13,075 bases of DNA, from IMG/VR virus record IMGVR_UViG_2690316099_000003; one strand, given 5' to 3'. Position numbers and translations under genes: made by a program. The notes beneath the pieces were generated by a model, which saw only the letters and a list, made by a program, of their open reading frames with translations, searched no databases and was not told the origin of the DNA. Positions 3,656 through 12,888 of the stretch are shown one piece after another. Every line of letters starts with the position of its first letter. Within the stretch, counting starts at the first letter, position 1. This DNA comes from a virus. Lineage: Duplodnaviria; Heunggongvirae; Uroviricota; Caudoviricetes.

Positions 3656-4177
3656 GTGATAGCTGAACTGTCTGCGGCTATGGCTGCTATAAAGGAGACT
3701 GCCGGTCTTGCTAAGGTTATTAATGACGCGAAAACGGATGCAGAAGTTAAAGCTGCAACCATTGAACTCCAGAACAAACTAATCACGCTTCAGGCAGAAT
3801 GCTTCTCTCTTGGCGATGCGATCCGCCTTCGTGATGAAGAGGTGATGCATCTCAAAGCAAAAATTGCAGAGTTTGAAGATTTTTGTGCCAAGGTAGAAGG
3901 ATATGTCCTTGATCAGCTTGACTCTGGTGCTTTTGTTTACTCTAAAAATGAAATTGTGAGTGGAAAAGAAATAACTGTGCATCTGTGCCCACTTTGTTAT
4001 TCCAAAAATATAAAATCGATACTTCATCCGCTTCCAGTAGGTAAAACTTCTCATTTTCTTACAAGCCGTTGCCTTCACTGTGAAAATAAATTTCTTATGG
4101 AAAAAAATCCGATGTACGAACGACCAAGATCATTACGTGAGTCGGGGCGAGATCTGAATTCGCCTTGGATTCCTTAA
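3656..4177 (+). CDS. Orphan hypothetical protein, coiled-coil N-terminus plus C-terminal CxxC...CxxC zinc ribbon (173 aa from GTG 3656; alternative ATG at 3680)
   Basis: Longest ORF in an AT-rich segment; CPLC and CLHC pairs about 26 residues apart; convergent with cI; no convincing SD for either start, so start and coding status are uncertain. Confidence 0.45.
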   Translation: MIAELSAAMAAIKETAGLAKVINDAKTDAEVKAATIELQNKLITLQAECFSLGDAIRLRDEEVMHLKAKIAEFEDFCAKVEGYVLDQLDSGAFVYSKNEIVSGKEITVHLCPLCYSKNIKSILHPLPVGKTSHFLTSRCLHCENKFLMEKNPMYERPRSLRESGRDLNSPWIP

Positions 4178-4208: not shown

Positions 4209-4281
4209 NNNNNNNNNNNNNNNNNNNNNNNNNNNNNNNNNNNNNNNNNNNNNNNNNNNNNNNNNNNNNNNNNNNNNNNNN
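4209..4281. other. Assembly gap (73 N) flanked on both sides by the same octamer ccagattg
   Basis: Run of n characters read directly; true length and content unknown. Confidence 0.95.
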
Positions 4282-4488: not shown

Positions 4489-5115
4489 CTAGAGTTCGTA
4501 TTGAACTCCTTTGACTACACCAATGATCAGGCAATTACCATTGATTGGGATGTTGGGATACCGTGGATTTAATGGCACTAAAAACTTTTGAGGACCATCG
4601 ATGACTAATTTTTTTACTGTAGCTTCGTTCGTTCCATCAAGTCGAGCAATGACTATTTTTCCATGACGAGGTTCTGCATCAGGATCTACAATCACTGTTG
4701 CACCTTCTGGTATTGTTGGGAGGCCATTAGGATTAGTCATGGAGTCGCCTTTAACTTCTAATGCAAATGAGTTATCACCAATCTTTAAAGATGTATCTAC
4801 CCACTTGTCCACTTCACTAAACACTTCTGCTGCCCTGCACTCAGTAAACTGCCCAGCCTGAACCCACGAAATTACAGGAACTCTGCGCATGTTTGTGACT
4901 AGTTTGCCTTCAAACTCAGCACCATAAAGAATGTAATCTATTGACGTATTAAAGAACTTCGCTAATTTCGAAAGTGCTTCCCCGCCAGGGACATTGATGT
5001 CTTTTTCCCAGTACCCCACAGCAACGTCACTTACCCCACAAAATTTACCCAATTCTTTCTGGGACGTTCTGGTAACCCTTCTCAGAGCTTTTATACGCTG
5101 ACCAACCGTTTCCAT
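4489..5115 (-). CDS. cI-like phage repressor: N-terminal HTH plus C-terminal S24 (LexA-type) autopeptidase domain (208 aa)
   Basis: N-terminal HTH (VGQRIKALRR...TSQKELGKFCGVSDVAVGYWE); C-terminal GDSM catalytic Ser motif and downstream KK (VKKLV) typical of S24 self-cleaving repressors; divergent from the Cro-like gene. Confidence 0.8.
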   Translation of the reverse strand: METVGQRIKALRRVTRTSQKELGKFCGVSDVAVGYWEKDINVPGGEALSKLAKFFNTSIDYILYGAEFEGKLVTNMRRVPVISWVQAGQFTECRAAEVFSEVDKWVDTSLKIGDNSFALEVKGDSMTNPNGLPTIPEGATVIVDPDAEPRHGKIVIARLDGTNEATVKKLVIDGPQKFLVPLNPRYPNIPINGNCLIIGVVKGVQYEL

Positions 5116-5213
5116 AGGAGCACCATTTCTTAAATTACTAAGTAATCTTAGTTTTTATTGACCTAAGATAGATTGATAATTAACATCTAATAAAACTTAG
5201 TTTTGGAGGGCGT
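5116..5213. promoter_or_regulatory. Divergent immunity-region control region (PRM/PR-like) with operator-like palindrome ACTAAG-TAAT-CTTAGT (5137-5152) and further CTTAG/CTAAG half-sites (5163-5167, 5196-5200); candidate PR -35 ttgacc (5158-5163), 17 bp, -10 taacat (5181-5186)
   Basis: 98 bp AT-rich gap between divergent cI-like and Cro-like starts; palindrome and half-sites read directly; promoter hexamers are by-eye matches to the sigma70 consensus. Confidence 0.55.
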
Positions 5214-5414
5214 ATGACAACTGACGATATCGAAAGCTACTTCGGCAGTATTGAGAAAGTTGCTGCTTTTTTCGGCATAACAACTGAGGCCGTTTATCAG
5301 TGGCGAAACCGTCCGGGCCAGTTAATTCCAAAAGGACGTGCAGCAGAAGCAGCATATAGAACTTGCGGACGGTTGCCATTTAAACCTGAGCTTTATGAAA
5401 AATCTAATGGATAA
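5214..5414 (+). CDS. Cro-like small HTH regulator (66 aa)
   Basis: Small ORF divergent from cI with GGAGGG RBS; HTH-like segment EKVAAFFGITTEAVYQWRN; stop overlaps the start of the next gene. Confidence 0.6.
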   Translation: MTTDDIESYFGSIEKVAAFFGITTEAVYQWRNRPGQLIPKGRAAEAAYRTCGRLPFKPELYEKSNG

Positions 5415-6009
5415 ATCGATTAACAGAAACCACAGAACGATGAGGCTAACCGTGGGTAAGTATCACTGGAAAGTAGAAAAACAGCCTGAGTGGTACGTGA
5501 AAGCTGTCAGAAAAACTATCGCAGCGTTGCCGGGTGGTTACGCTGAAGCAGCTGACTGGCTGGATGTAACAGAGAACGCATTATTTAACCGCCTTCGTGC
5601 CGATGGCGATCAGATTTTCCCGCTGGGATGGGCAATGATTTTACAACGTGCTGGTGGCACTCACTTCATTGCTGACGCTGTGGCGCAGTCTGCAAATGGC
5701 GTCTTTGTGTCTCTTCCTGACGTCGAGGATGTGGACAATGCCGATATTAACCAGCGTTTACTGGAAGTCATTGAACAGATCGGCAGTTATTCAAAACAGA
5801 TTCGTTCGGCAATCGAAGACGGTGTAGTGGAACCGCATGAGAAGACAGCAATTAACGACGAGCTGTACCTCTCAATTTCGAAGCTGCAGGAGCATGCAGC
5901 ACTTGTCTACAAAATTTTTTGCGTTTCAGAAAGTAATGACGCCCGCGAGTGTGCAGCTCCGGGCGTCGTGGCGTCGATTGCTTCTGGTTGTGGAGAAACT
6001 AACGCATGA
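5395..6009 (+). CDS. Phage CII-like regulatory protein (CP76-family-like), start ambiguous (5395 or 5407; track ORF begins 5338)
   Basis: Position right after cro; ATG at 5407 overlaps the cro stop (ATGGATAA), suggesting coupling. Family assignment is from recalled similarity to prophage CII (CP76) proteins, not a search. Confidence 0.45.
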
Positions 6010-6344
6010 ACAGTTTAACAACACACTACCGTCGCTCGCAACTGATTGCGCTTCCTGTACCGGGTGGAAAAGCGAAGGTGGAGTATTGCTATGCAGTAAA
6101 TGTACCAGGTGACAGGGAAATTGTAACCCACAGCTTTGCTGAGTGGGCTGTGGGTGATTTCAACCGGCAGAAGGAGACAGTCCTTTGCGACAAGTTAACC
6201 GCTGGTTCAAAGATCACTACGGAGTACCCGTCAGAGTCATTCGTTGGGAACCGGAAACACAACGGGTTATCTACCTCCGCGAAGGCTATGAGCATGAGTG
6301 CTTCAGCCCGCTCGAACAGTTTCGTCGTAAATTCAGGGAAATAG
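6006..6344 (+). CDS. Hypothetical protein (112 aa)
   Basis: ATG overlaps the previous stop (ATGA at 6006-6009) and ends 9 bp before the next RBS/start, consistent with an operon; no recognisable domain. Confidence 0.4.
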
Positions 6345-6353
6345 AGGTCGGTC

Positions 6354-7295
6354 ATGAGCACTAAATTAACCGGCTATGTATGGGATGGTTGCGCAGCGTC
6401 AGGCATGAAATTATCCAGTGTGGCAATTATGGCCCGCCTGGCTGATTTCAGTAATGACGAAGGTGTGTGCTGGCCATCGATTGAAACCATTGCCCGCCAG
6501 ATTGGCGCGGGGATGAGTACCGTCAGAACGGCTATTGCACGGCTGGAAGCAGAAGGCTGGTTAACGCGTAAGGCGCGTCGCCAGGGTAACCGTAATGCGT
6601 CGAATGTTTATCAGCTTAACGTTGCGAAGCTTCAGGCCGCGGCATTTTCTCAACTGTCAGATTCTGACCCGTCAAAATCTGACGCATCAAAATCTGACCC
6701 GTCAAAATTTGATGCGTCGAAATCTGGCAAAAAAGCGGGTTTTCACCCGTCAGAATCTGGCGGGGATCCGTCAGTAAAATCAAAATATGATCCGTCAGAT
6801 AAAAAACCTTCTCGTCCGGACGTTTCGCAACCGGACACGCAGACGGCTGAACAGGATTTTTTAACTCGCCATCCTGATGCGGTTGTATTCAGCCCTAAAA
6901 AGTGCCAGTGGGGAACGCAGGATGATTTGACCTGCGCACAGTGGCTCTGGAAAAAAATCATCGCCCTGTACGAGCAGGCCGCCGAATGTGACGGCGAGGT
7001 GGTTCGTCCCAAAGAACCGAACTGGACAGCCTGGGCAAACGAAATTCGCCTGATGTGTGTGCAGGATGGTCGTACTCACAAACAAATCTGCGAGATGTAC
7101 AGCCGCATCAGCCGCGATCCGTTCTGGTGCCGTAACGTGCTCAGCCCGTCGAAGCTGCGGGAAAAATGGGATGAGCTTTCCCTGCGCTTATCGCCGTCCA
7201 TCAGCACGTACACAGAAAAACGCGAAGACCCGTACTTCAAAGCCAGTTACGACAATGTGGACTACAGCCAGATCCCGGCAGGATTCAGGGGGTGA
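6354..7295 (+). CDS. Phage replication initiator-like protein (O-like / YfdO-like): N-terminal winged-helix region, repeat-rich linker, C-terminal domain (313 aa)
   Basis: N-terminal HTH-like segment (SVAIMARLADFSNDEGVCWPSIETIARQIGAGMSTVRTAIARLEAEGWL); low-complexity DPSKSDASKSDPSKFDASKSG linker encoded by tandem DNA repeats; position after cro/cII as for lambda O. Confidence 0.55.
   Translation: MSTKLTGYVWDGCAASGMKLSSVAIMARLADFSNDEGVCWPSIETIARQIGAGMSTVRTAIARLEAEGWLTRKARRQGNRNASNVYQLNVAKLQAAAFSQLSDSDPSKSDASKSDPSKFDASKSGKKAGFHPSESGGDPSVKSKYDPSDKKPSRPDVSQPDTQTAEQDFLTRHPDAVVFSPKKCQWGTQDDLTCAQWLWKKIIALYEQAAECDGEVVRPKEPNWTAWANEIRLMCVQDGRTHKQICEMYSRISRDPFWCRNVLSPSKLREKWDELSLRLSPSISTYTEKREDPYFKASYDNVDYSQIPAGFRG
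6654..6810. repeat. Iteron-like tandem array inside the replication gene: four 15-bp units (ccgtcaaaatctgac and variants at 6669, 6684, 6699, 6714) plus further ccgtcag-containing copies at 6747, 6768, 6792, ending in an A-rich stretch
   Basis: Repeat units read directly; the arrangement (iterons within the initiator gene followed by A/T-rich DNA) matches the lambda ori layout. Confidence 0.5.
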
Positions 7296-7297
7296 GC

Positions 7298-7783
7298 ATG
7301 AGTCTTTTGAATGACGTTCAGAAATTCATTGAAGCCCATCCGGGGTGTACTTCCGGAGACATTGCGGATGCTTTTGCAGGTTACTCACGGCAGCGCGTTC
7401 TACAGTCAGCAAGCAAGTTACGTCAGAGCGGGCGTGTGGCTCACCGTTGTGAAGTAGATACACGCAGACATTTCCCGCGCCTGACTGAGAGAGCGCAGGA
7501 GCCGGAACCACAACCAGTTCGTGAAACCAGACCTGTGCGCAATTTCTATGTCGGCACTAACGATCCCCGGGTGATTTTGTTGACCCGCCAGGCGGAAGAA
7601 CTGGAGTCCAGGGGCTTATACCGTCGTGCTGCAACGGTGTGGATGGCGGCATTCCGTGAAAGCCACTCCCAGCCAGAACGAAACAATTTTCTGGCGCATC
7701 GTGAGCGGTGCTTACGGAAAAGCAGCAAGCGCGCTGCATCGGGTGAAGAGTGGTATCTGTCAGGGAATTACGTGGGGGCTTAA
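7298..7783 (+). CDS. PerC-family transcriptional regulator-like protein (161 aa from ATG 7298)
   Basis: Motif AEELESRGLYRRAATVWMAAF resembles the PerC-family core; ATG 7298 has a GGGGG RBS; the track's GTG 7292 start is less likely. Confidence 0.55.
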   Translation: MSLLNDVQKFIEAHPGCTSGDIADAFAGYSRQRVLQSASKLRQSGRVAHRCEVDTRRHFPRLTERAQEPEPQPVRETRPVRNFYVGTNDPRVILLTRQAEELESRGLYRRAATVWMAAFRESHSQPERNNFLAHRERCLRKSSKRAASGEEWYLSGNYVGA

Positions 7784-8436
7784 TGAGTAATAAATATTGC
7801 CAGGCGCTGGTGGAGCTGCGGAACAAACCAGCCCATGAACTGAAGGAAGTGGGCGATCAGTGGCGCACGCCGGACAACATTTTCTGGGGAATTAACACCC
7901 TGTTTGGCCCGTTTGTTCTGGATCTGTTTACTGATGGTGATAACGCCAAATGTGCCGCTTATTACACTGCGGAAGACAACGCGCTGGCGCATGACTGGTC
8001 AGAACGTCTTGCGGAGCTTAAAGGTGCTGCCTTTGGTAATCCCCCGTACAGTCGCGCCAGTCAGCATGAGGGGCAATACATCACCGGCATGCGTTACATC
8101 ATGAAACATGCCAGTGCTATGCGTGATAAAGGCGGGCGCTATGTTTTCCTGATCAAAGCTGCCACCAGCGAAGTGTGGTGGCCGGAAGATGCAGACCATA
8201 TTGCTTTTATTCGCGGGCGTATTGGTTTTGAACTGCCAGCCTGGTTTATCCCGAAGGACGAGAAGCAGGTGCCGACAGGCGCTTTCTTCGCTGGTGCTAT
8301 TGCTGTTTTCGACAAGACCTGGAAGGGACCGGCAATCAGCTACATCGGGCGCGATGAACTTGAGGCATGTGGTGAGGCCTTTCTGGTGCAGGTTCGCCAG
8401 CAGGCGGAAAAACTGGTCAGGGAGATGGCGGCATGA
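7783..8436 (+). CDS. Phage Dam-type DNA N6-adenine methyltransferase (217 aa from ATG 7783)
   Basis: Catalytic NPPY motif (AFGNPPYSRA); ATG 7783 overlaps the upstream stop as TAATG and has a GGGGG RBS; the track's 7750 start lies inside the upstream gene. Confidence 0.75.
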   Translation: MSNKYCQALVELRNKPAHELKEVGDQWRTPDNIFWGINTLFGPFVLDLFTDGDNAKCAAYYTAEDNALAHDWSERLAELKGAAFGNPPYSRASQHEGQYITGMRYIMKHASAMRDKGGRYVFLIKAATSEVWWPEDADHIAFIRGRIGFELPAWFIPKDEKQVPTGAFFAGAIAVFDKTWKGPAISYIGRDELEACGEAFLVQVRQQAEKLVREMAA

Positions 8437-8759
8437 CGACATTAACTCAATGCCAGCAGCAGGTGCTGGATATGCTGATTTCTTACCAGAAAGAACGTGG
8501 CTTCCCGCCAACCAATCAGGAGGTGGCAACCATGCTGGGATACCGTTCAGTGAATGCAGCAGTGGAGCATCTTCGCGCACTGGAGAAAAAAGGCGTCATC
8601 ACGATAAAGCGTGGCGTGGCCCGGGGGATAACGCTTCATACCGCGGTGAAGGACGACGACAGCGAGGCGGTCGGGATTATCCGCTCACTGCTTGCCGGTG
8701 AGGAAAACGCAAGGCTGCGTGCAACCCACTGGTTACATGAGAGAGGCCTGAAAGCATGA
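8433..8759 (+). CDS. LexA N-terminal DNA-binding-domain-like protein lacking the S24 peptidase domain (108 aa)
   Basis: Near-colinear match to the recalled LexA N-terminus (ours RGFPPTNQEVATMLGYRSVNAAVEHLRALEKKGVITIKRGVARGITL versus LexA [36 protein letters not shown]...RGIRL); no Ser/Lys peptidase domain follows; ATGA overlap with the upstream gene. Confidence 0.65.
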   Translation: MTTLTQCQQQVLDMLISYQKERGFPPTNQEVATMLGYRSVNAAVEHLRALEKKGVITIKRGVARGITLHTAVKDDDSEAVGIIRSLLAGEENARLRATHWLHERGLKA

Positions 8760-9145
8760 AGCTGATCCTGCCTTTTCCGCCCAGCGTGAACACGTACTGG
8801 CGACACCCCAACAAAGGGGCGTTTGCAGGTAAGAGCCTGATAAGCGCGGCGGGGCGAAAATTCCAGAGCGCGGCGTGTGCAGCAATAGTTGAGCAGTTAC
8901 GTCGTCTGCCAAAACCAACGTCGGCACCTGCTTCAGTGGAGATCGTGTTGTTTCCTCCGGATAACCGGATCCGCGATCTGGACAACTATAACAAGGCGCT
9001 GTTTGACGCCCTGACCCACGCGGGTGTGTGGGAGGACGACAGTCAGGTGAAAAGAATGCTGGTGGAGTGGGGACCGGTTATCCCGGAAGGGAAGGTCGAG
9101 ATCACTATCAGTAAGTACGAGAAAACGGCGGGTGCAGCCGCCTGA
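8756..9145 (+). CDS. rusA: RusA-family Holliday junction resolvase (129 aa)
   Basis: N-terminal LILPFPPSVNTYW signature and size typical of RusA; ATGA overlap with the upstream gene. Confidence 0.75.
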   Translation: MKLILPFPPSVNTYWRHPNKGAFAGKSLISAAGRKFQSAACAAIVEQLRRLPKPTSAPASVEIVLFPPDNRIRDLDNYNKALFDALTHAGVWEDDSQVKRMLVEWGPVIPEGKVEITISKYEKTAGAAA

Positions 9146-9164
9146 TTAAGAGGAGAAACGAAGT

Positions 9165-9974
9165 ATGAATAATCTGATGGTCATTGATGGTATTGAAGTT
9201 CGTCGTGATGCTTATGGGCGTTACAGCCTGAACGATCTGCATCGCGCAGCAGTAGCATCTGGTGCAAATGCCAGAACCAAGGAGCCGGGAAAGTTTCTTT
9301 CCAGCCAACAAACTGTTGAGCTTGTTCATGAATTGACCAACACCCAGAATTTGGGTGTTGACCCGGTGAGTGTGATTCATGGGGGAAATGAACGGGGAAC
9401 GTATGTCTGCAAGGAACTGGTGTATGCCTATGCAATGTGGATCAGCCCGTCATTCCATCTGAAGGTGATCCGTACTTTCGATATGGTAACCAGCGCACCG
9501 GAAAAATTATCCGGACAGGCTGCTGACAAGATGCAGGCTGGCGTGATCCTGCTGGACTTTATGCGCCGGGAGTTAAACCTGTCTAACTCTTCAGTGCTTG
9601 GTGCCTGTCAGAAACTCCAGGAGGCTGTTGGCTTACCGAATCTGGCACCGCGCTATGCCATTGATGCTCCTGCTGATGCACACGATGGCTCAAGTCGCCC
9701 GACACTGTCACTGAGCGCACTGCTGAAACAGTATGGTATACGCCTGACGGCTAATCAGGCATATCACCAGATGGTGAAACTGGGGATCGTCGAGCAGCGC
9801 GAACGATACAGCCGTACCGCGATTAACAACATCAAAAAATTCTGGTCGCTGACAGCGAAAGGTTGCATGTTCGGCAAGAACATCACCAGTCCCGCAAATC
9901 CGCGCGAGACGCAGCCGCATTTCTTCGAATCCCGATTCCCTGAGCTGTTAAAGCTGCTCGATACCGTTCATTGA
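9165..9974 (+). CDS. KilA-N domain protein, possible antirepressor-like (269 aa)
   Basis: N-terminal KilA-N-like pattern (DGIEVRR...YSLNDLHRAA...GTYVCKELVYAYAMWISPSFHLKVIRTF); strong AGGAG RBS 12 nt upstream. Confidence 0.65.
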   Translation: MNNLMVIDGIEVRRDAYGRYSLNDLHRAAVASGANARTKEPGKFLSSQQTVELVHELTNTQNLGVDPVSVIHGGNERGTYVCKELVYAYAMWISPSFHLKVIRTFDMVTSAPEKLSGQAADKMQAGVILLDFMRRELNLSNSSVLGACQKLQEAVGLPNLAPRYAIDAPADAHDGSSRPTLSLSALLKQYGIRLTANQAYHQMVKLGIVEQRERYSRTAINNIKKFWSLTAKGCMFGKNITSPANPRETQPHFFESRFPELLKLLDTVH

Positions 9975-9975
9975 G

Positions 9976-10971
9976 GTGACCGTGAGAGCGCTACTGACCC
10001 CTGAAATTGCCCCGCGTATGGGGATCGTATTGTTCAGGCCAGGTTCAGAGCTGATGCCCCTGTTTATGCAGGGGCGTGTCCTGCTGGAGCCTGAGCCGGA
10101 GCGTTATTCATCTTTCGCGAGTGGTGCCGTTCCGGCGGCATCACAACCGCTGGCGGATGATCCTGCCGTTCGGGCCGTGTTCCGCAATGAGGCAGTGATC
10201 CGTCGTGCTGGTGGCGTGGAATGTCTTGAAAGCTGGTTACTTCGTGAAAAAGGCTGCCAGAGGCCTCATTCCGACTGGCACAGCGAGAACATGACCACAA
10301 TGCGACACGCTCCGGGTGCAATCCGTCTGTGCTGGCACTGCGATAACCAGCTGCGCGATCAGTTCACGGAACGGCTGGAATCAATGGCAACGGATAACTG
10401 TGCCCGCTGGGTGTTGTCTGTTGTGCGTCGGGATCTCGGTTTTGATGACAGTCACGTTGTGACAATGCCGGAACTGTGCTGGTGGCTGATTCGTAATGAC
10501 CTGGCGGATGCCTTACCGGAAAGTGCAGCCCGTAAGGCACTGAGATTACCGAAGCCTGTTGTGCCGTCTGTCACCCGGGAAAGTGACCTTGTGCCTTCGG
10601 TTCCTGCCACCAGCATCATCCAGGATAAGGCGAAAAAGGTGCTGGCGCTGAAAGTGGATCCGGAGTCGCCGGAGTCTTTTATGTTACGCCCAAAACGTCG
10701 CCGCTGGGTTAATGAAAAGTACACGCGCTGGGTTAAGACACAGCCGTGTGCATGTTGTGGAAAGCCCGCTGATGATCCCCACCACCTGATAGGTCACGGT
10801 CAGGGTGGAATGGGAACAAAAGCGCATGACCTTTTTGTGTTGCCTTTGTGCAGAAAGCATCACGACGAGCTGCATGCGGATACCGTGGCATTTGAAGAGA
10901 AGTATGGCTCCCAGCTGGAGCTGATATTTCGTTTTATCGATCGTGCGCTGGCAATAGGCGTACTGGCGTAA
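9976..10971 (+). CDS. DUF968-family phage protein (YdfU-like) with C-terminal Cys/His-rich HNH-like motif (331 aa from GTG 9976; alternative ATG 10018)
   Basis: C-terminal CACCGK...DDPHHL...CRKHHDELH cluster; size and position before Q match the recalled Qin ydfU context; GTG start directly abuts the upstream stop. Confidence 0.55.
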   Translation: MTVRALLTPEIAPRMGIVLFRPGSELMPLFMQGRVLLEPEPERYSSFASGAVPAASQPLADDPAVRAVFRNEAVIRRAGGVECLESWLLREKGCQRPHSDWHSENMTTMRHAPGAIRLCWHCDNQLRDQFTERLESMATDNCARWVLSVVRRDLGFDDSHVVTMPELCWWLIRNDLADALPESAARKALRLPKPVVPSVTRESDLVPSVPATSIIQDKAKKVLALKVDPESPESFMLRPKRRRWVNEKYTRWVKTQPCACCGKPADDPHHLIGHGQGGMGTKAHDLFVLPLCRKHHDELHADTVAFEEKYGSQLELIFRFIDRALAIGVLA

Positions 10972-10984
10972 GTGGAGAACGAGC

Positions 10985-11737
10985 ATGAACCTTGAAGCCT
11001 TACCAAAATATTACTCCCCAAAATCTCCAAAATTGAGTGATGACGCACCGGCGACAGGCTCTGGTGGTTTAACGATTACGGATGTGATGGCTGCGCAGGG
11101 GATGGTGCAGTCGAAAGCACCGCTTGGGTTTGCCTTATTCCTGGCAAAAGTTGGTGTTCAGGATCCTCAGTTTGCGATTGAAGGTCTGCTCAATTACGCG
11201 ATGGCACTGGATAACCCGACATTGAATAAATTGAGTGAAGAAACCCGGCTACAGATTATTCCTTACCTTGTGAATTTTGCCTTTGCTGATTATTCCAGGT
11301 CTGCGGCAAGTAAGGCTCGTTGTGAGCATTGTGCTGGTACTGGATTTCATAATGTATTGCTCGAAGTGGTGAAACACTCCAGAAGCGGGGAATCTGTTAT
11401 CAAAGAAGAGTGGGTGAAGGAACTATGTCAGCATTGCCATGGTAAGGGAGAAGTCAGCACAGCGTGCAGAGGGTGTAAGGGTAAAGGTATTGTCCTGGAT
11501 GAAAAAAGGACCCGGCTTCATGGCACACCTGTTTATAAGATTTGTGGGCGTTGCAATGGAAAACGGTTTAGTCGTTTACCAACCACACTGGCGCGGCATC
11601 ATGTCCAGAAGCTGGTACCAGACCTGAGTGATTATCAGTGGTATAAAGGATATGCAAATGTCATTGATAAACTGGTTACAAAGTGCTGGCAGGAGGAATC
11701 TTACGCTGAAGCACAATTGAGAAAGGTGACGAGATAA
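10985..11737 (+). CDS. Late-gene antiterminator Q-like protein (250 aa) with four CxxCxGxG zinc-finger motifs
   Basis: CEHCAGTG, CQHCHGKG, CRGCKGKG, CGRCNGKR read in translation; 250 aa equals the recalled size of Qin QuuQ; followed by a promoter plus terminator as expected for PR'-tR'. Confidence 0.6.
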   Translation: MNLEALPKYYSPKSPKLSDDAPATGSGGLTITDVMAAQGMVQSKAPLGFALFLAKVGVQDPQFAIEGLLNYAMALDNPTLNKLSEETRLQIIPYLVNFAFADYSRSAASKARCEHCAGTGFHNVLLEVVKHSRSGESVIKEEWVKELCQHCHGKGEVSTACRGCKGKGIVLDEKRTRLHGTPVYKICGRCNGKRFSRLPTTLARHHVQKLVPDLSDYQWYKGYANVIDKLVTKCWQEESYAEAQLRKVTR

Positions 11738-11768
11738 GTGATTTTCGCCGAAGATGACGACGTGATTC

Positions 11769-11797
11769 TTGCATTTTTCAAAAAATATGGATAAAAT
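11769..11797 (+). promoter_or_regulatory. Candidate late promoter PR': -35 ttgcat (11769-11774), 17-bp spacer, -10 taaaat (11792-11797)
   Basis: Hexamers and spacing read directly; located 32 bp downstream of the Q stop and about 45 bp upstream of an intrinsic terminator. Confidence 0.45.
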
Positions 11798-11842
11798 TTT
11801 TTCAACGATGGGCTTTGTATACCCGAAGTTAAGAAAAAGTAG

Positions 11843-11870
11843 AAAACCCGCTGATGAGCGGGTTTTTGTG
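11843..11870 (+). terminator. Rho-independent terminator (candidate tR'): stem aaaacccgct / agcgggtttt, loop gatg, then tttttgtgcttt
   Basis: GC-rich perfect stem plus T-run read directly; on the complement it is also followed by a T-rich tract, so it may act bidirectionally. Confidence 0.7.
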
Positions 11871-12159
11871 CTTTAAATAGGGTAATAGAGATGCTGAATC
11901 TCATTACGGGATTCATGTTAGTTTACTTATTATTTATCGGGTGACTTTGTTTTTTGCCTGATGTTTAAAATGTTTTCTTCCAGTACAATGTCCATAGATA
12001 CAATGAGTCTGCTTATTACATTATTAGCAGAGCTATTAAGGTCAAAGTACAGCATAAGCTTTTAAAGCCAATCAACCAGTCATCAAGACAGACGGGTTTA
12101 TTCATGAAAACTCTCCATGTTTGATTCGATGGGGCTTGAAGTTAAAGCTTTAATATAGC

Positions 12160-12372
12160 TCATGAAAGGTAAACATTGGCAGCTGATGGTCCACGCAGAC
12201 CATTTATCCGGCAAAATTCCACGCGTAATCCGGTGGTAATTTCTTCTGCATCACGGAGATTGAGCGCTGAAACATGAAGCTGGACATCGATACGACCATC
12301 GGATGGGGTTATAAGACCTTTGCCGCTTTTGCCGTCAAAGGTTTTGAGAATTCCTGTCATTTTACGGGACAA
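12160..12372 (-). CDS. cspF: Cold-shock-domain protein, CspF/CspH-like (70 aa)
   Basis: CspA-family fold signature ([23 protein letters not shown]...) with degenerate RNP motifs as in the CspF/CspH subgroup; divergent from the CspB-like gene as in Qin. Confidence 0.75.
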
Positions 12373-12672: not shown

Positions 12673-12888
12673 ATGTCAAATAAAATGACTGGTTTAGTAA
12701 AATGGTTTAACGCTGATAAAGGTTTTGGCTTTATTTCTCCTGTTGATGGTAGTAAAGATGTGTTTGTGCATTTTTCTGCGATTCAGAATGATAATTATCG
12801 AACCTTATTTGAAGGACAAAAGGTTACCTTCTCTGTAGAGAGTGGTGCTAAAGGTCCAGCAGCAGCAAATGTCATCATTACTGATTAA
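12673..12888 (+). CDS. cspB: Cold-shock protein CspB-like, CspA family (71 aa)
   Basis: [38 protein letters not shown] with RNP1 (KGFGFI) and RNP2 (VFVHF) motifs; about 300 bp AT-rich upstream region consistent with the long 5'UTR of cold-shock genes. Confidence 0.85.

Follow-up and report, generated by a model that had tools for sequence, protein, structure and literature searches.

LexD, a stand-alone LexA-type DNA-binding domain encoded between dam and rusA in lambdoid prophages of Escherichia coli

The early region of a lambdoid Escherichia coli prophage, contained in a 13,075-nt stretch of viral DNA (IMG/VR record IMGVR_UViG_2690316099_000003; this whole stretch is the window referred to below), encodes a protein of 108 amino acids, named LexD in this analysis, that consists of a LexA-type DNA-binding domain followed by a short tail. 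Several described systems resemble it in part. The lexA3 (Ind-) allele provides a non-cleavable LexA activity that RecA* cannot remove, although its product is a full-length protein, unlike LexD. As far as our literature search found, the only truncated phage LexA to have been characterised is gp6 of the Bacillus thuringiensis tectivirus GIL01, which is 44% identical to host LexA's DNA-binding domain, binds a palindrome, GaCACAnnTGTGaC, which overlaps the -35 of P3, the late promoter that it activates (PMC6182141). Like LexD, gp6 is a truncated LexA homologue from an early phage gene (PMC6182141). Compared by its published description, however, gp6 has no extra tail and late expression depends on it, whereas in the prophage studied here the late genes are Q-dependent, the LexD gene is dispensable, no site for LexD was found in cis, and the recognition helix is much closer to that of the host LexA. 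Another GIL01 protein, gp7, is reported to enhance the binding of LexA and to inhibit its cleavage (PMC4551915, PMC6182141). It binds host LexA and not DNA, and LexD may be likened to it as a RecA*-proof LexA activity, repression of the SOS response by LexD being only proposed. Lambda NinH, a Fis mimic encoded in ninR, is also a small nin-region copy of the DNA-binding part of a host protein, and its gene lies beside that of a Holliday-junction resolvase (PMC7166090). NinH differs in having a Fis-like helix-turn-helix and a gene downstream of rap, where that of LexD is upstream of rusA; the analogy is one of position and strategy only.

The family to which LexD belongs has itself been catalogued several times. 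Residues 1-107 align with positions 1-105 of the 106 in PHROG 362 (E=1.5e-59), whose label 'transcriptional repressor' is an annotation only, and RefSeq names the protein "LexA family transcriptional regulator". Gp46 of phage mEp460, labelled "LexA DNA binding domain protein" in GenBank, is 100% identical to LexD; the proteins of SfV (Orf42), SfII, SfIV and cdtI are 97-98% identical, and those of Stx2a, Stx2c and Stx2k phages 99-100% identical. Along with this shared protein family goes a shared gene order, dam-X-rusA-KilA-N-DUF968-Q, although the prophage in the window differs from mEp460 in its immunity region and in its content after Q. A survey of Stx phages lists the family as pham 237 without further study (PMC8136144). 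Our literature search returned catalogue mentions only, with no functional study of the family and no data on its binding, dimerisation or expression. Of 5426 complete E. coli genomes, 2233 (approximately 41%) carry the gene, with a maximum of four copies in one genome. LexD is therefore best introduced as an already annotated, widespread phage accessory gene in a defined orthologous group, and not as a new kind of element.

The gene and the parts of its product are as follows.

8433-8759, plus strand: LexD gene, 108 amino acids, stop included (open reading frame list, ATG start)
8433-8636, plus strand: LexA-type winged helix-turn-helix, residues 1-68, with helices at 6-22, 28-35 and 40-52 and strands at 56-58 and 66-68 (AlphaFold2 and Foldseek)
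8547-8588, plus strand: recognition helix SVNAAVEHLRALEK, residues 39-52 (alignment to 1LEA)
8637-8660, plus strand: acidic, low-confidence linker HTAVKDDD, residues 69-76, with a predicted local distance difference test score (pLDDT) below 50 at residues 71-75
8661-8756, plus strand: family-specific tail of two amphipathic helices, residues 77-108 (alignments and model)

The LexA character of the first part is clear from several independent searches. The Pfam family LexA_DNA_bind (PF01726) matched residues 1-65 over positions 1-65 of its 65 (E=2.9e-19), at 69 bits against a cut-off of 23.7. A phmmer search of the PDB recovered 1LEA, the N-terminal domain of E. coli LexA, with E=7e-16, and BLASTP aligned LexD with E. 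coli LexA at 43% identity over 90 residues (E=1e-21). The NCBIfam lexA equivalog model TIGR00498 was covered only from position 1 to 91 of 203, and the score of 70.8 bits is below its cut-off of 110.95. Pfam gave no match to the S24 peptidase domain (PF00717) in LexD, which stops at residue 108; the same database did find an S24 domain in the cI-like repressor of the same prophage (4489-5115). An earlier note on this DNA, made from the letters alone, had described the protein as a stand-alone LexA DNA-binding domain without S24, nearly colinear with the N-terminus of LexA before it ends. These searches, together with the superposition on 3JSO given below, support both statements, and the domain limits are also in order: LexD falls in LexA_DNA_bind over the whole domain. 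Stand-alone LexA-domain proteins are frequent among predicted viral structures. Separately, we observed tandem pairs of LexA_DNA_bind domains without S24 in proteins of 140-350 amino acids (P0131, P0132, P0149, P0152, P0156, P0159, P0163 and P0155), and these could function as pseudo-dimers within a single chain; P0155 additionally has a PTPS domain fused to it.

A structural model agrees with the profiles. Prediction from the single sequence was poor (pLDDT 70) and was replaced by an AlphaFold2 model based on a 14-sequence family alignment (overall pLDDT 83), in which the winged-helix part, residues 1-68, has a pLDDT of 79-89. The top Foldseek matches were chains of 3JSO, a LexA-DNA complex, with a root-mean-square deviation (rmsd) of 0.9-1.0 Å over 67-68 residues at 50-51% identity; taking 3JSO, 3JSP and 1LEA together, the rmsd was 0.9-1.2 Å over 67-69 residues, with a probability of 1.00. 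The fold is thus that of the N-terminal domain of E. coli LexA (about 50% identity over 68 residues, rmsd about 1.0 Å), and the two proteins have Ser39, Asn41, Ala42, Glu45 and Arg64-Gly65-Ile66 in common. Unlike LexA, the LexD family has no hinge or cleavage site and no S24/dimerisation domain, and Glu44 is replaced; LexD also carries an added non-LexA tail of about 32 amino acids, and its gene has no SOS box upstream.

The linker, which holds most of the nonsynonymous polymorphism of LexD (A71T/V and V72A/M), leads into this tail. Its two helices, residues 74-88 and 93-103 in the model, have a pLDDT of 87-89, and the consensus EAVxxIRxLLAxExxARxRAxxWLxxxG, with Ala97 and Leu101 invariant, holds across 14 sequences down to 38% identity. 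Full-length relatives were likewise recovered down to 38% identity, from Enterobacterales phages, in a search of 1.84 billion representative proteins, and Foldseek found no structural match for the tail in the PDB. We considered whether the tail might be a remnant of the LexA hinge and cleavage site. Pairwise HMMER and BLASTP alignments do pair residues 79-90 (AVGIIRSLLAGE) with the LexA hinge LVGRVAAGE, running to LexA residue 86. At the level of the family this idea is rejected, because in a profile-profile alignment of the LexD and LexA families homology ends at residue 76. Moreover, the Ala-Gly pair is not kept in relatives below about 65% identity, 'LLAGE' being found in close relatives only, and a G89D allele of LexD exists. 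On these grounds the tail is a family-specific addition, for which we propose a role in dimerisation or partner binding.

The recognition helix is where LexD and LexA can be compared most closely. The earlier note had read it as NAAVEHL, where LexA has NAAEEHL, and the alignment to 1LEA confirms this, with SVNAAVEHL in LexD and SPNAAEEHL in LexA. The residues by which LexA contacts DNA are Ser39, Asn41, Ala42, Glu44 and Glu45 (PMC3091678); LexD keeps four of the five and has Val at position 44. We counted these positions in the 44 family members that have the tail motif and in 25 full-length LexA proteins. Position 39 is Ser in all members of both sets, position 41 is Asn in 43/44 and 25/25, and position 42 is Ala in 39/44 and 25/25. 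Position 45 is Glu in 40 of the 44 family members and variable in the 25 LexA proteins. Position 44, by comparison, is Glu in 24 of the 25 LexA proteins and in none of the family, where it is Val in 36, Ala in 3, Phe in 2 and otherwise Thr, Leu or Tyr. Glu44 is also nearly invariant in an independent 13-sequence LexA alignment (A3). The change that the earlier note picked up at this position therefore marks the family as a whole. Val44 does occur in one LexA, P0191, from a metagenome-assembled genome of the Halothiobacillaceae, which is uninformative on operator specificity. The wing residues Arg64-Gly65-Ile66 are invariant in the LexD family.

LexD is both maintained and dispensable. The 42 E. 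coli alleles differ by 13 distinct nonsynonymous codon changes (245 sites) and 41 synonymous ones (79 sites), giving a crude ratio of nonsynonymous to synonymous polymorphism (pN/pS) of about 0.10, indicative of purifying selection. In a set of 78 loci anchored on DUF968, 70 have the gene and 8 do not; six of these eight (6/78 overall; L117, L136, L152, L169, L173 and L174) have dam abutting rusA, with one GCATGA at the junction. When window positions 7750-9145 were compared with the six gene-less loci by blastn, the dam and rusA matches overlapped by exactly these 6 nt, which in the window are present twice.

8431-8436, plus strand: upstream copy of the GCATGA junction repeat (blastn junction analysis)
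8754-8759, plus strand: downstream copy of GCATGA, where the LexD stop overlaps the rusA start (blastn junction analysis)

These clean single-GCATGA junctions show that LexD is a precisely bounded, dispensable cassette, and the natural dam-GCATGA-rusA variants offer a ready-made isogenic comparison for its function.

What might such a cassette do? The reading that we tentatively prefer, as a real possibility though short of an even chance, is that LexD is a RecA-insensitive binder of LexA-type operators that acts in trans during lytic growth. Three points argue for it: retention of four of the five contacts and of the wing, the lack of a site in cis, and the accessory character of the cassette, since an accessory, host-directed function fits a dispensable cassette better than does a core phage regulator. 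The earlier note had likewise suggested either binding to LexA operators free of RecA cleavage or regulation of phage genes through SOS-like sites; judged from the sequence this remains plausible, and the evidence, set out below, is mixed.

The genetic context bears on when LexD would be made.

4489-5115, opposite (minus) strand: cI-like repressor with S24
5158-5186, plus strand: probable pR, TTGACC-17-TAACAT, upstream of cro (consensus pattern match only)
5214-5414, plus strand: cro
7750-8436, plus strand: upstream neighbour, Dam N6-adenine methyltransferase, translationally coupled (PF05869, E=1.1e-45)
8420-8436, plus strand: ribosome-binding site GGGAG at 8420-8424, 8 nt before the start, and ATGA at 8433-8436, overlapping the dam stop (sequence)
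8756-9145, plus strand: downstream neighbour, RusA Holliday-junction resolvase, translationally coupled (PF05866, E=6.1e-15), its ATG overlapping the LexD stop (ATGA)
10985-11737, plus strand: antiterminator Q

Read along the plus strand, the genes are cro, a CP76-type cII, an O-like initiator with ori iterons, PerC/YfdN, Dam, LexD, RusA, KilA-N, DUF968/HNH, Q and cspF/cspB-like genes. A consensus scan of positions 5100-12100 gave no promoter-like site belonging to LexD itself, pR being the only upstream candidate on the plus strand. Since pR is the sole such site, we place LexD in a cro-cII-O-PerC-dam-LexD-rusA-KilA-N-DUF968-Q operon. From this arrangement, LexD is probably a delayed-early lytic gene, silent in the repressed prophage.

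The arrangement is widely conserved. The gene is directly followed by rusA in 87 of 91 loci and directly preceded by dam in 60 of 90; in seven distant relatives (38-51% identity) it lies directly upstream of rusA, always before DUF968 and Q, and distant relatives often have it directly downstream of a DNA methyltransferase gene. In one of the seven a 67-aa open reading frame separates it from rusA (P0138; L007/L008), and in another a frame on the reverse strand does so (P0124; L003). In an Edwardsiella phage a tail-less version of 71 amino acids stands directly upstream of DUF968, and in a Klebsiella phage the order is dinI-hyp-X-67aa-DUF968-Q, where X is the LexD relative. In Klebsiella phage ST846-OXA48phi9.1 (L095, 1-969) we also noted a DinI homologue (PF06183, E=1.3e-25) two genes upstream of a 40%-identical LexD relative, so that this nin-region block holds two SOS-related small proteins.

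Our preferred reading, binding of LexA-type operators in trans, can be laid out as follows. LexD would be a sequence-specific DNA binder made of the winged helix, residues 1-68, and the two-helix tail, residues 77-108, with the tail supplying the dimerisation that LexA gets from its C-terminal domain. Since Butala et al (PMC3159453) report that the N-terminal domains of LexA touch each other on the operator, pairing on DNA without a C-terminal domain is plausible. Having no S24 domain and no conserved cleavage site, LexD should be beyond inactivation by RecA*. Given its early-right operon position, coupled between dam and rusA, it would be made only after removal of the prophage repressor, when host LexA is also destroyed. 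It could then occupy the SOS boxes of the host and, in co-resident or related prophages and plasmids, promoters under LexA control, and as a surrogate LexA would re-impose repression in lytic growth. As the protein lacks the LexA dimerisation domain, its affinity or its preference for half-sites might be tuned by the family-wide loss of Glu44. In its fullest form, which we regard as somewhat unlikely, the idea would be that, once induced, the prophages of roughly 40% of E. coli strains produce a RecA-proof stand-in for LexA, which re-closes the SOS regulon and silences LexA-controlled rivals in the same cell; these would include antirepressor-driven prophages, colicin and lysis operons and SOS-induced toxins, and the inducing phage would keep the cell. 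Should LexD turn out to bind SOS boxes, the host SOS response would be ended or reshaped during induction by a prophage gene that is very common, with possible effects on mutagenesis, persistence, the biology of Shiga-toxin phages (the gene being present in Stx2a, Stx2c and Stx2k phages) and competition between co-resident prophages.

Operators were sought by pattern and with an SOS-box weight matrix, trained on 26 sites of E. coli, whose scores are approximate (training sites, 12.7-26.7 bits). The strong hits are perfect (T/C)ACTGT-N8-ACAGT(A/G) sites and so hold whatever the matrix. There is no perfect CTGT-N8-ACAG in the 13,075 nt of the window, as the earlier note had found by eye, and no 20-mer in it reaches 12 bits. 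Eight one-mismatch matches were found against 4.5 expected, a number reached in 16 of 200 shuffles and hence at chance level. An SOS box in cis for LexD is therefore rejected. The window shows no sign of SOS-box autoregulation either: it has no site of at least 12 bits and no CTGT-N8-ACAG, and the LexD gene has no promoter-like site of its own.

Related phages do contain SOS boxes. In 11 diverse gene-carrying loci, when CTGT-Nx-ACAG was counted at spacings 0-16, only spacing 8 was enriched (11 observed, 1.1 expected); that such loci share the canonical SOS box and no other palindrome is a point in favour of LexA-type operators as targets. Three positions recur among 80 IMG/VR loci. The box CACTGTTTATTTTTACAGTA lies after Q, upstream of a DNA methylase gene of the late region, in 27/80, and TACTGTATGTAAAAACAGTA and its variants lie inside the mEp460-type cI coding region in 25/80, where they encode NTVCKNSI of the linker between the helix-turn-helix and S24. 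The third, TACTGTATTTATGAACAGTG, is in the spacer between rusA and KilA-N in 5/80, including L013 (27118-27137), the E. coli genome closest to the window; this spacer is 162 bp in L013 and 19 bp, without the box, in the window. The arrangement in L013 suggests that the variant KilA-N gene behind the box is a LexA-controlled antirepressor-like gene. Examples of the cI-internal, near-consensus box are at 4546-4565 in mEp460 (L001) and 836-855 in L002. A box (T/C)ACTGTAAAAATAAACAGTG stands at the start of the methyltransferase gene between Q and the lysis genes at 13597-13616 in L001, 8739-8758 in L011 and 24819-24838 in L012; in the window, csp genes occupy the place where related phages have this post-Q methyltransferase gene. 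In two distant relatives, L007 and L011, a small open reading frame precedes the LexD-type gene and has SOS boxes some 150 bp upstream of it; these frames match no Pfam family, DinI included. In L011 host LexA is the likelier binder of the box, because the recognition helix of the LexD relative there, P0242, has diverged (SQNTVFIHL).

Several of these results weigh against LexD as a binder of SOS boxes. Glu44, a nearly invariant contact of true LexA, is lost in all 44 family members, and for this reason the sequence preference of LexD may differ from that of LexA. Some members have three of the five contacts altered, as in SVNTIAGHL of a Citrobacter freundii protein, a change not to be expected of a protein aimed at the conserved SOS box of the host. 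No SOS box is present in the window, nor within 10 kb in 36 of 80 loci with an identical protein. In the DUF968-anchored set the density of boxes is 0.47 per 10 kb in loci with the gene and 0.42 in those without, a comparison of low power given only 8 loci without it, and an association of the LexD gene with SOS boxes is accordingly rejected. Lastly, the sole characterised precedent that we found, GIL01 gp6, has shifted specificity and activates transcription. Since density is equal with and without the gene and 36/80 loci are box-free, the boxes of related phages are best read as ordinary host LexA targets, and as possible targets of LexD.

The precedent of gp6, with its own palindrome and its activation of a late promoter (PMC6182141), leads to the strongest alternative: that LexD is a phage transcription factor with its own operator, a captured LexA winged helix that has drifted to a different palindrome and regulates one or a few phage or host promoters outside the SOS regulon. 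The family-wide loss of Glu44, the drift of the recognition helix in some members and, as an annotation only, the 'transcriptional repressor' label of PHROG 362 are consistent with this. However, the SOS box is the sole palindrome that the 11 diverse gene-carrying loci have in common, and there is no convincing inverted repeat near the conserved block in the window, whose repeats are cI operators, ori iterons or terminators. A candidate operator within dam, GCCACCA-N8-TGGTGGC, is explained by the coding sequence for AATSEVWWP. Sites of the gp6 type are at chance level: where 0.53 are expected, the window has one two-mismatch match, which falls in the DUF968 gene at 10737, and 81 of 200 shuffles have at least one. 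The late genes here depend on the antiterminator Q, and the existence of otherwise identical phages without the gene means that no essential promoter can depend on LexD. We therefore judge this alternative rather unlikely. Were it correct, LexD would represent a second independent re-purposing of LexA's DNA-binding domain by a phage, after GIL01 gp6.

A further possibility, suggested by position and by analogy, is that LexD does not act in transcription at all but is a DNA-binding accessory of the nin-region RusA and DUF968/HNH proteins, shaping or targeting DNA for junction resolution. Its place directly upstream of rusA, in 87 of the 91 loci and also in relatives as distant as 38% identity, would agree with this, as would its adjoining DUF968 in the Edwardsiella phage and in a Klebsiella phage, and NinH, likewise encoded in this genome region, offers a precedent as a shortened copy of a DNA-binding protein of the host (PMC7166090). 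Such synteny may, however, reflect inheritance as a single module, and the six loci that cleanly lack LexD keep an intact rusA attached straight to dam, which indicates that RusA does not need LexD. In addition, LexD diverges faster (40-49% identity) than RusA (66-77%) in the same loci, which does not point to a complex whose parts co-evolve tightly. The RusA that prophage DLP12 encodes acts on its own. Taken together, an accessory role of this kind appears improbable.

Two remaining ideas are essentially rejected. That residues 79-90 (AVGIIRSLLAGE), resembling the Ala84-Gly85 site of LexA, act as a decoy, occupying RecA* or an S24 site and slowing cleavage of LexA or of repressor, is highly improbable: pairwise alignments do reach LexA residue 86 and TIGR00498 was matched to position 91, but the limit of profile-profile homology at residue 76, the unconserved Ala-Gly and the G89D allele all stand against it, and the segment is predicted to be helical and not an extended cleavage loop. 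Fainter still is the chance that LexD, although dispensable, is a decaying, functionless remnant of a captured lexA, given a pN/pS of about 0.10 over 42 alleles, an intact, translationally coupled frame, an architecture kept in full, tail included, down to 38% identity, and a gene present in 2233 of 5426 genomes.

We also considered a role for LexD in a defence system, which is rejected, PADLOC giving only a weak, generic winged-helix match. A gene of that kind does lie elsewhere in a related prophage: in L013 the anti-phage defence gene dsr1 (14071-17898) is found beside the integrase, on the yjjG side of the insertion, in a part of the prophage outside the window.

Some further features of the window were noted in passing. 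The csp genes after Q, a cspF-like one (12160-12372, minus strand) and a cspB-like one (12673-12888, plus strand), have a parallel in Qin, a prophage of E. coli K-12. Between an open reading frame at 3656-4177 and the cI gene there is a run of 72 N (4210-4281), flanked by an 8-bp direct repeat, CCAGATTG. In L013 the octamer CCAGATTG occurs once there, with nothing inserted, and the run looks like a masked or unassembled insertion, for example an insertion sequence element with its target-site duplication. Finally, the O-like replication gene contains 4.3 copies of a 15-bp tandem repeat, TCTGACCCGTCAAAA, at 6663-6726, encoding a DPSKSDASKS stretch, and an inverted repeat at 6656-6683 overlaps this region; the two are probably the origin iterons.

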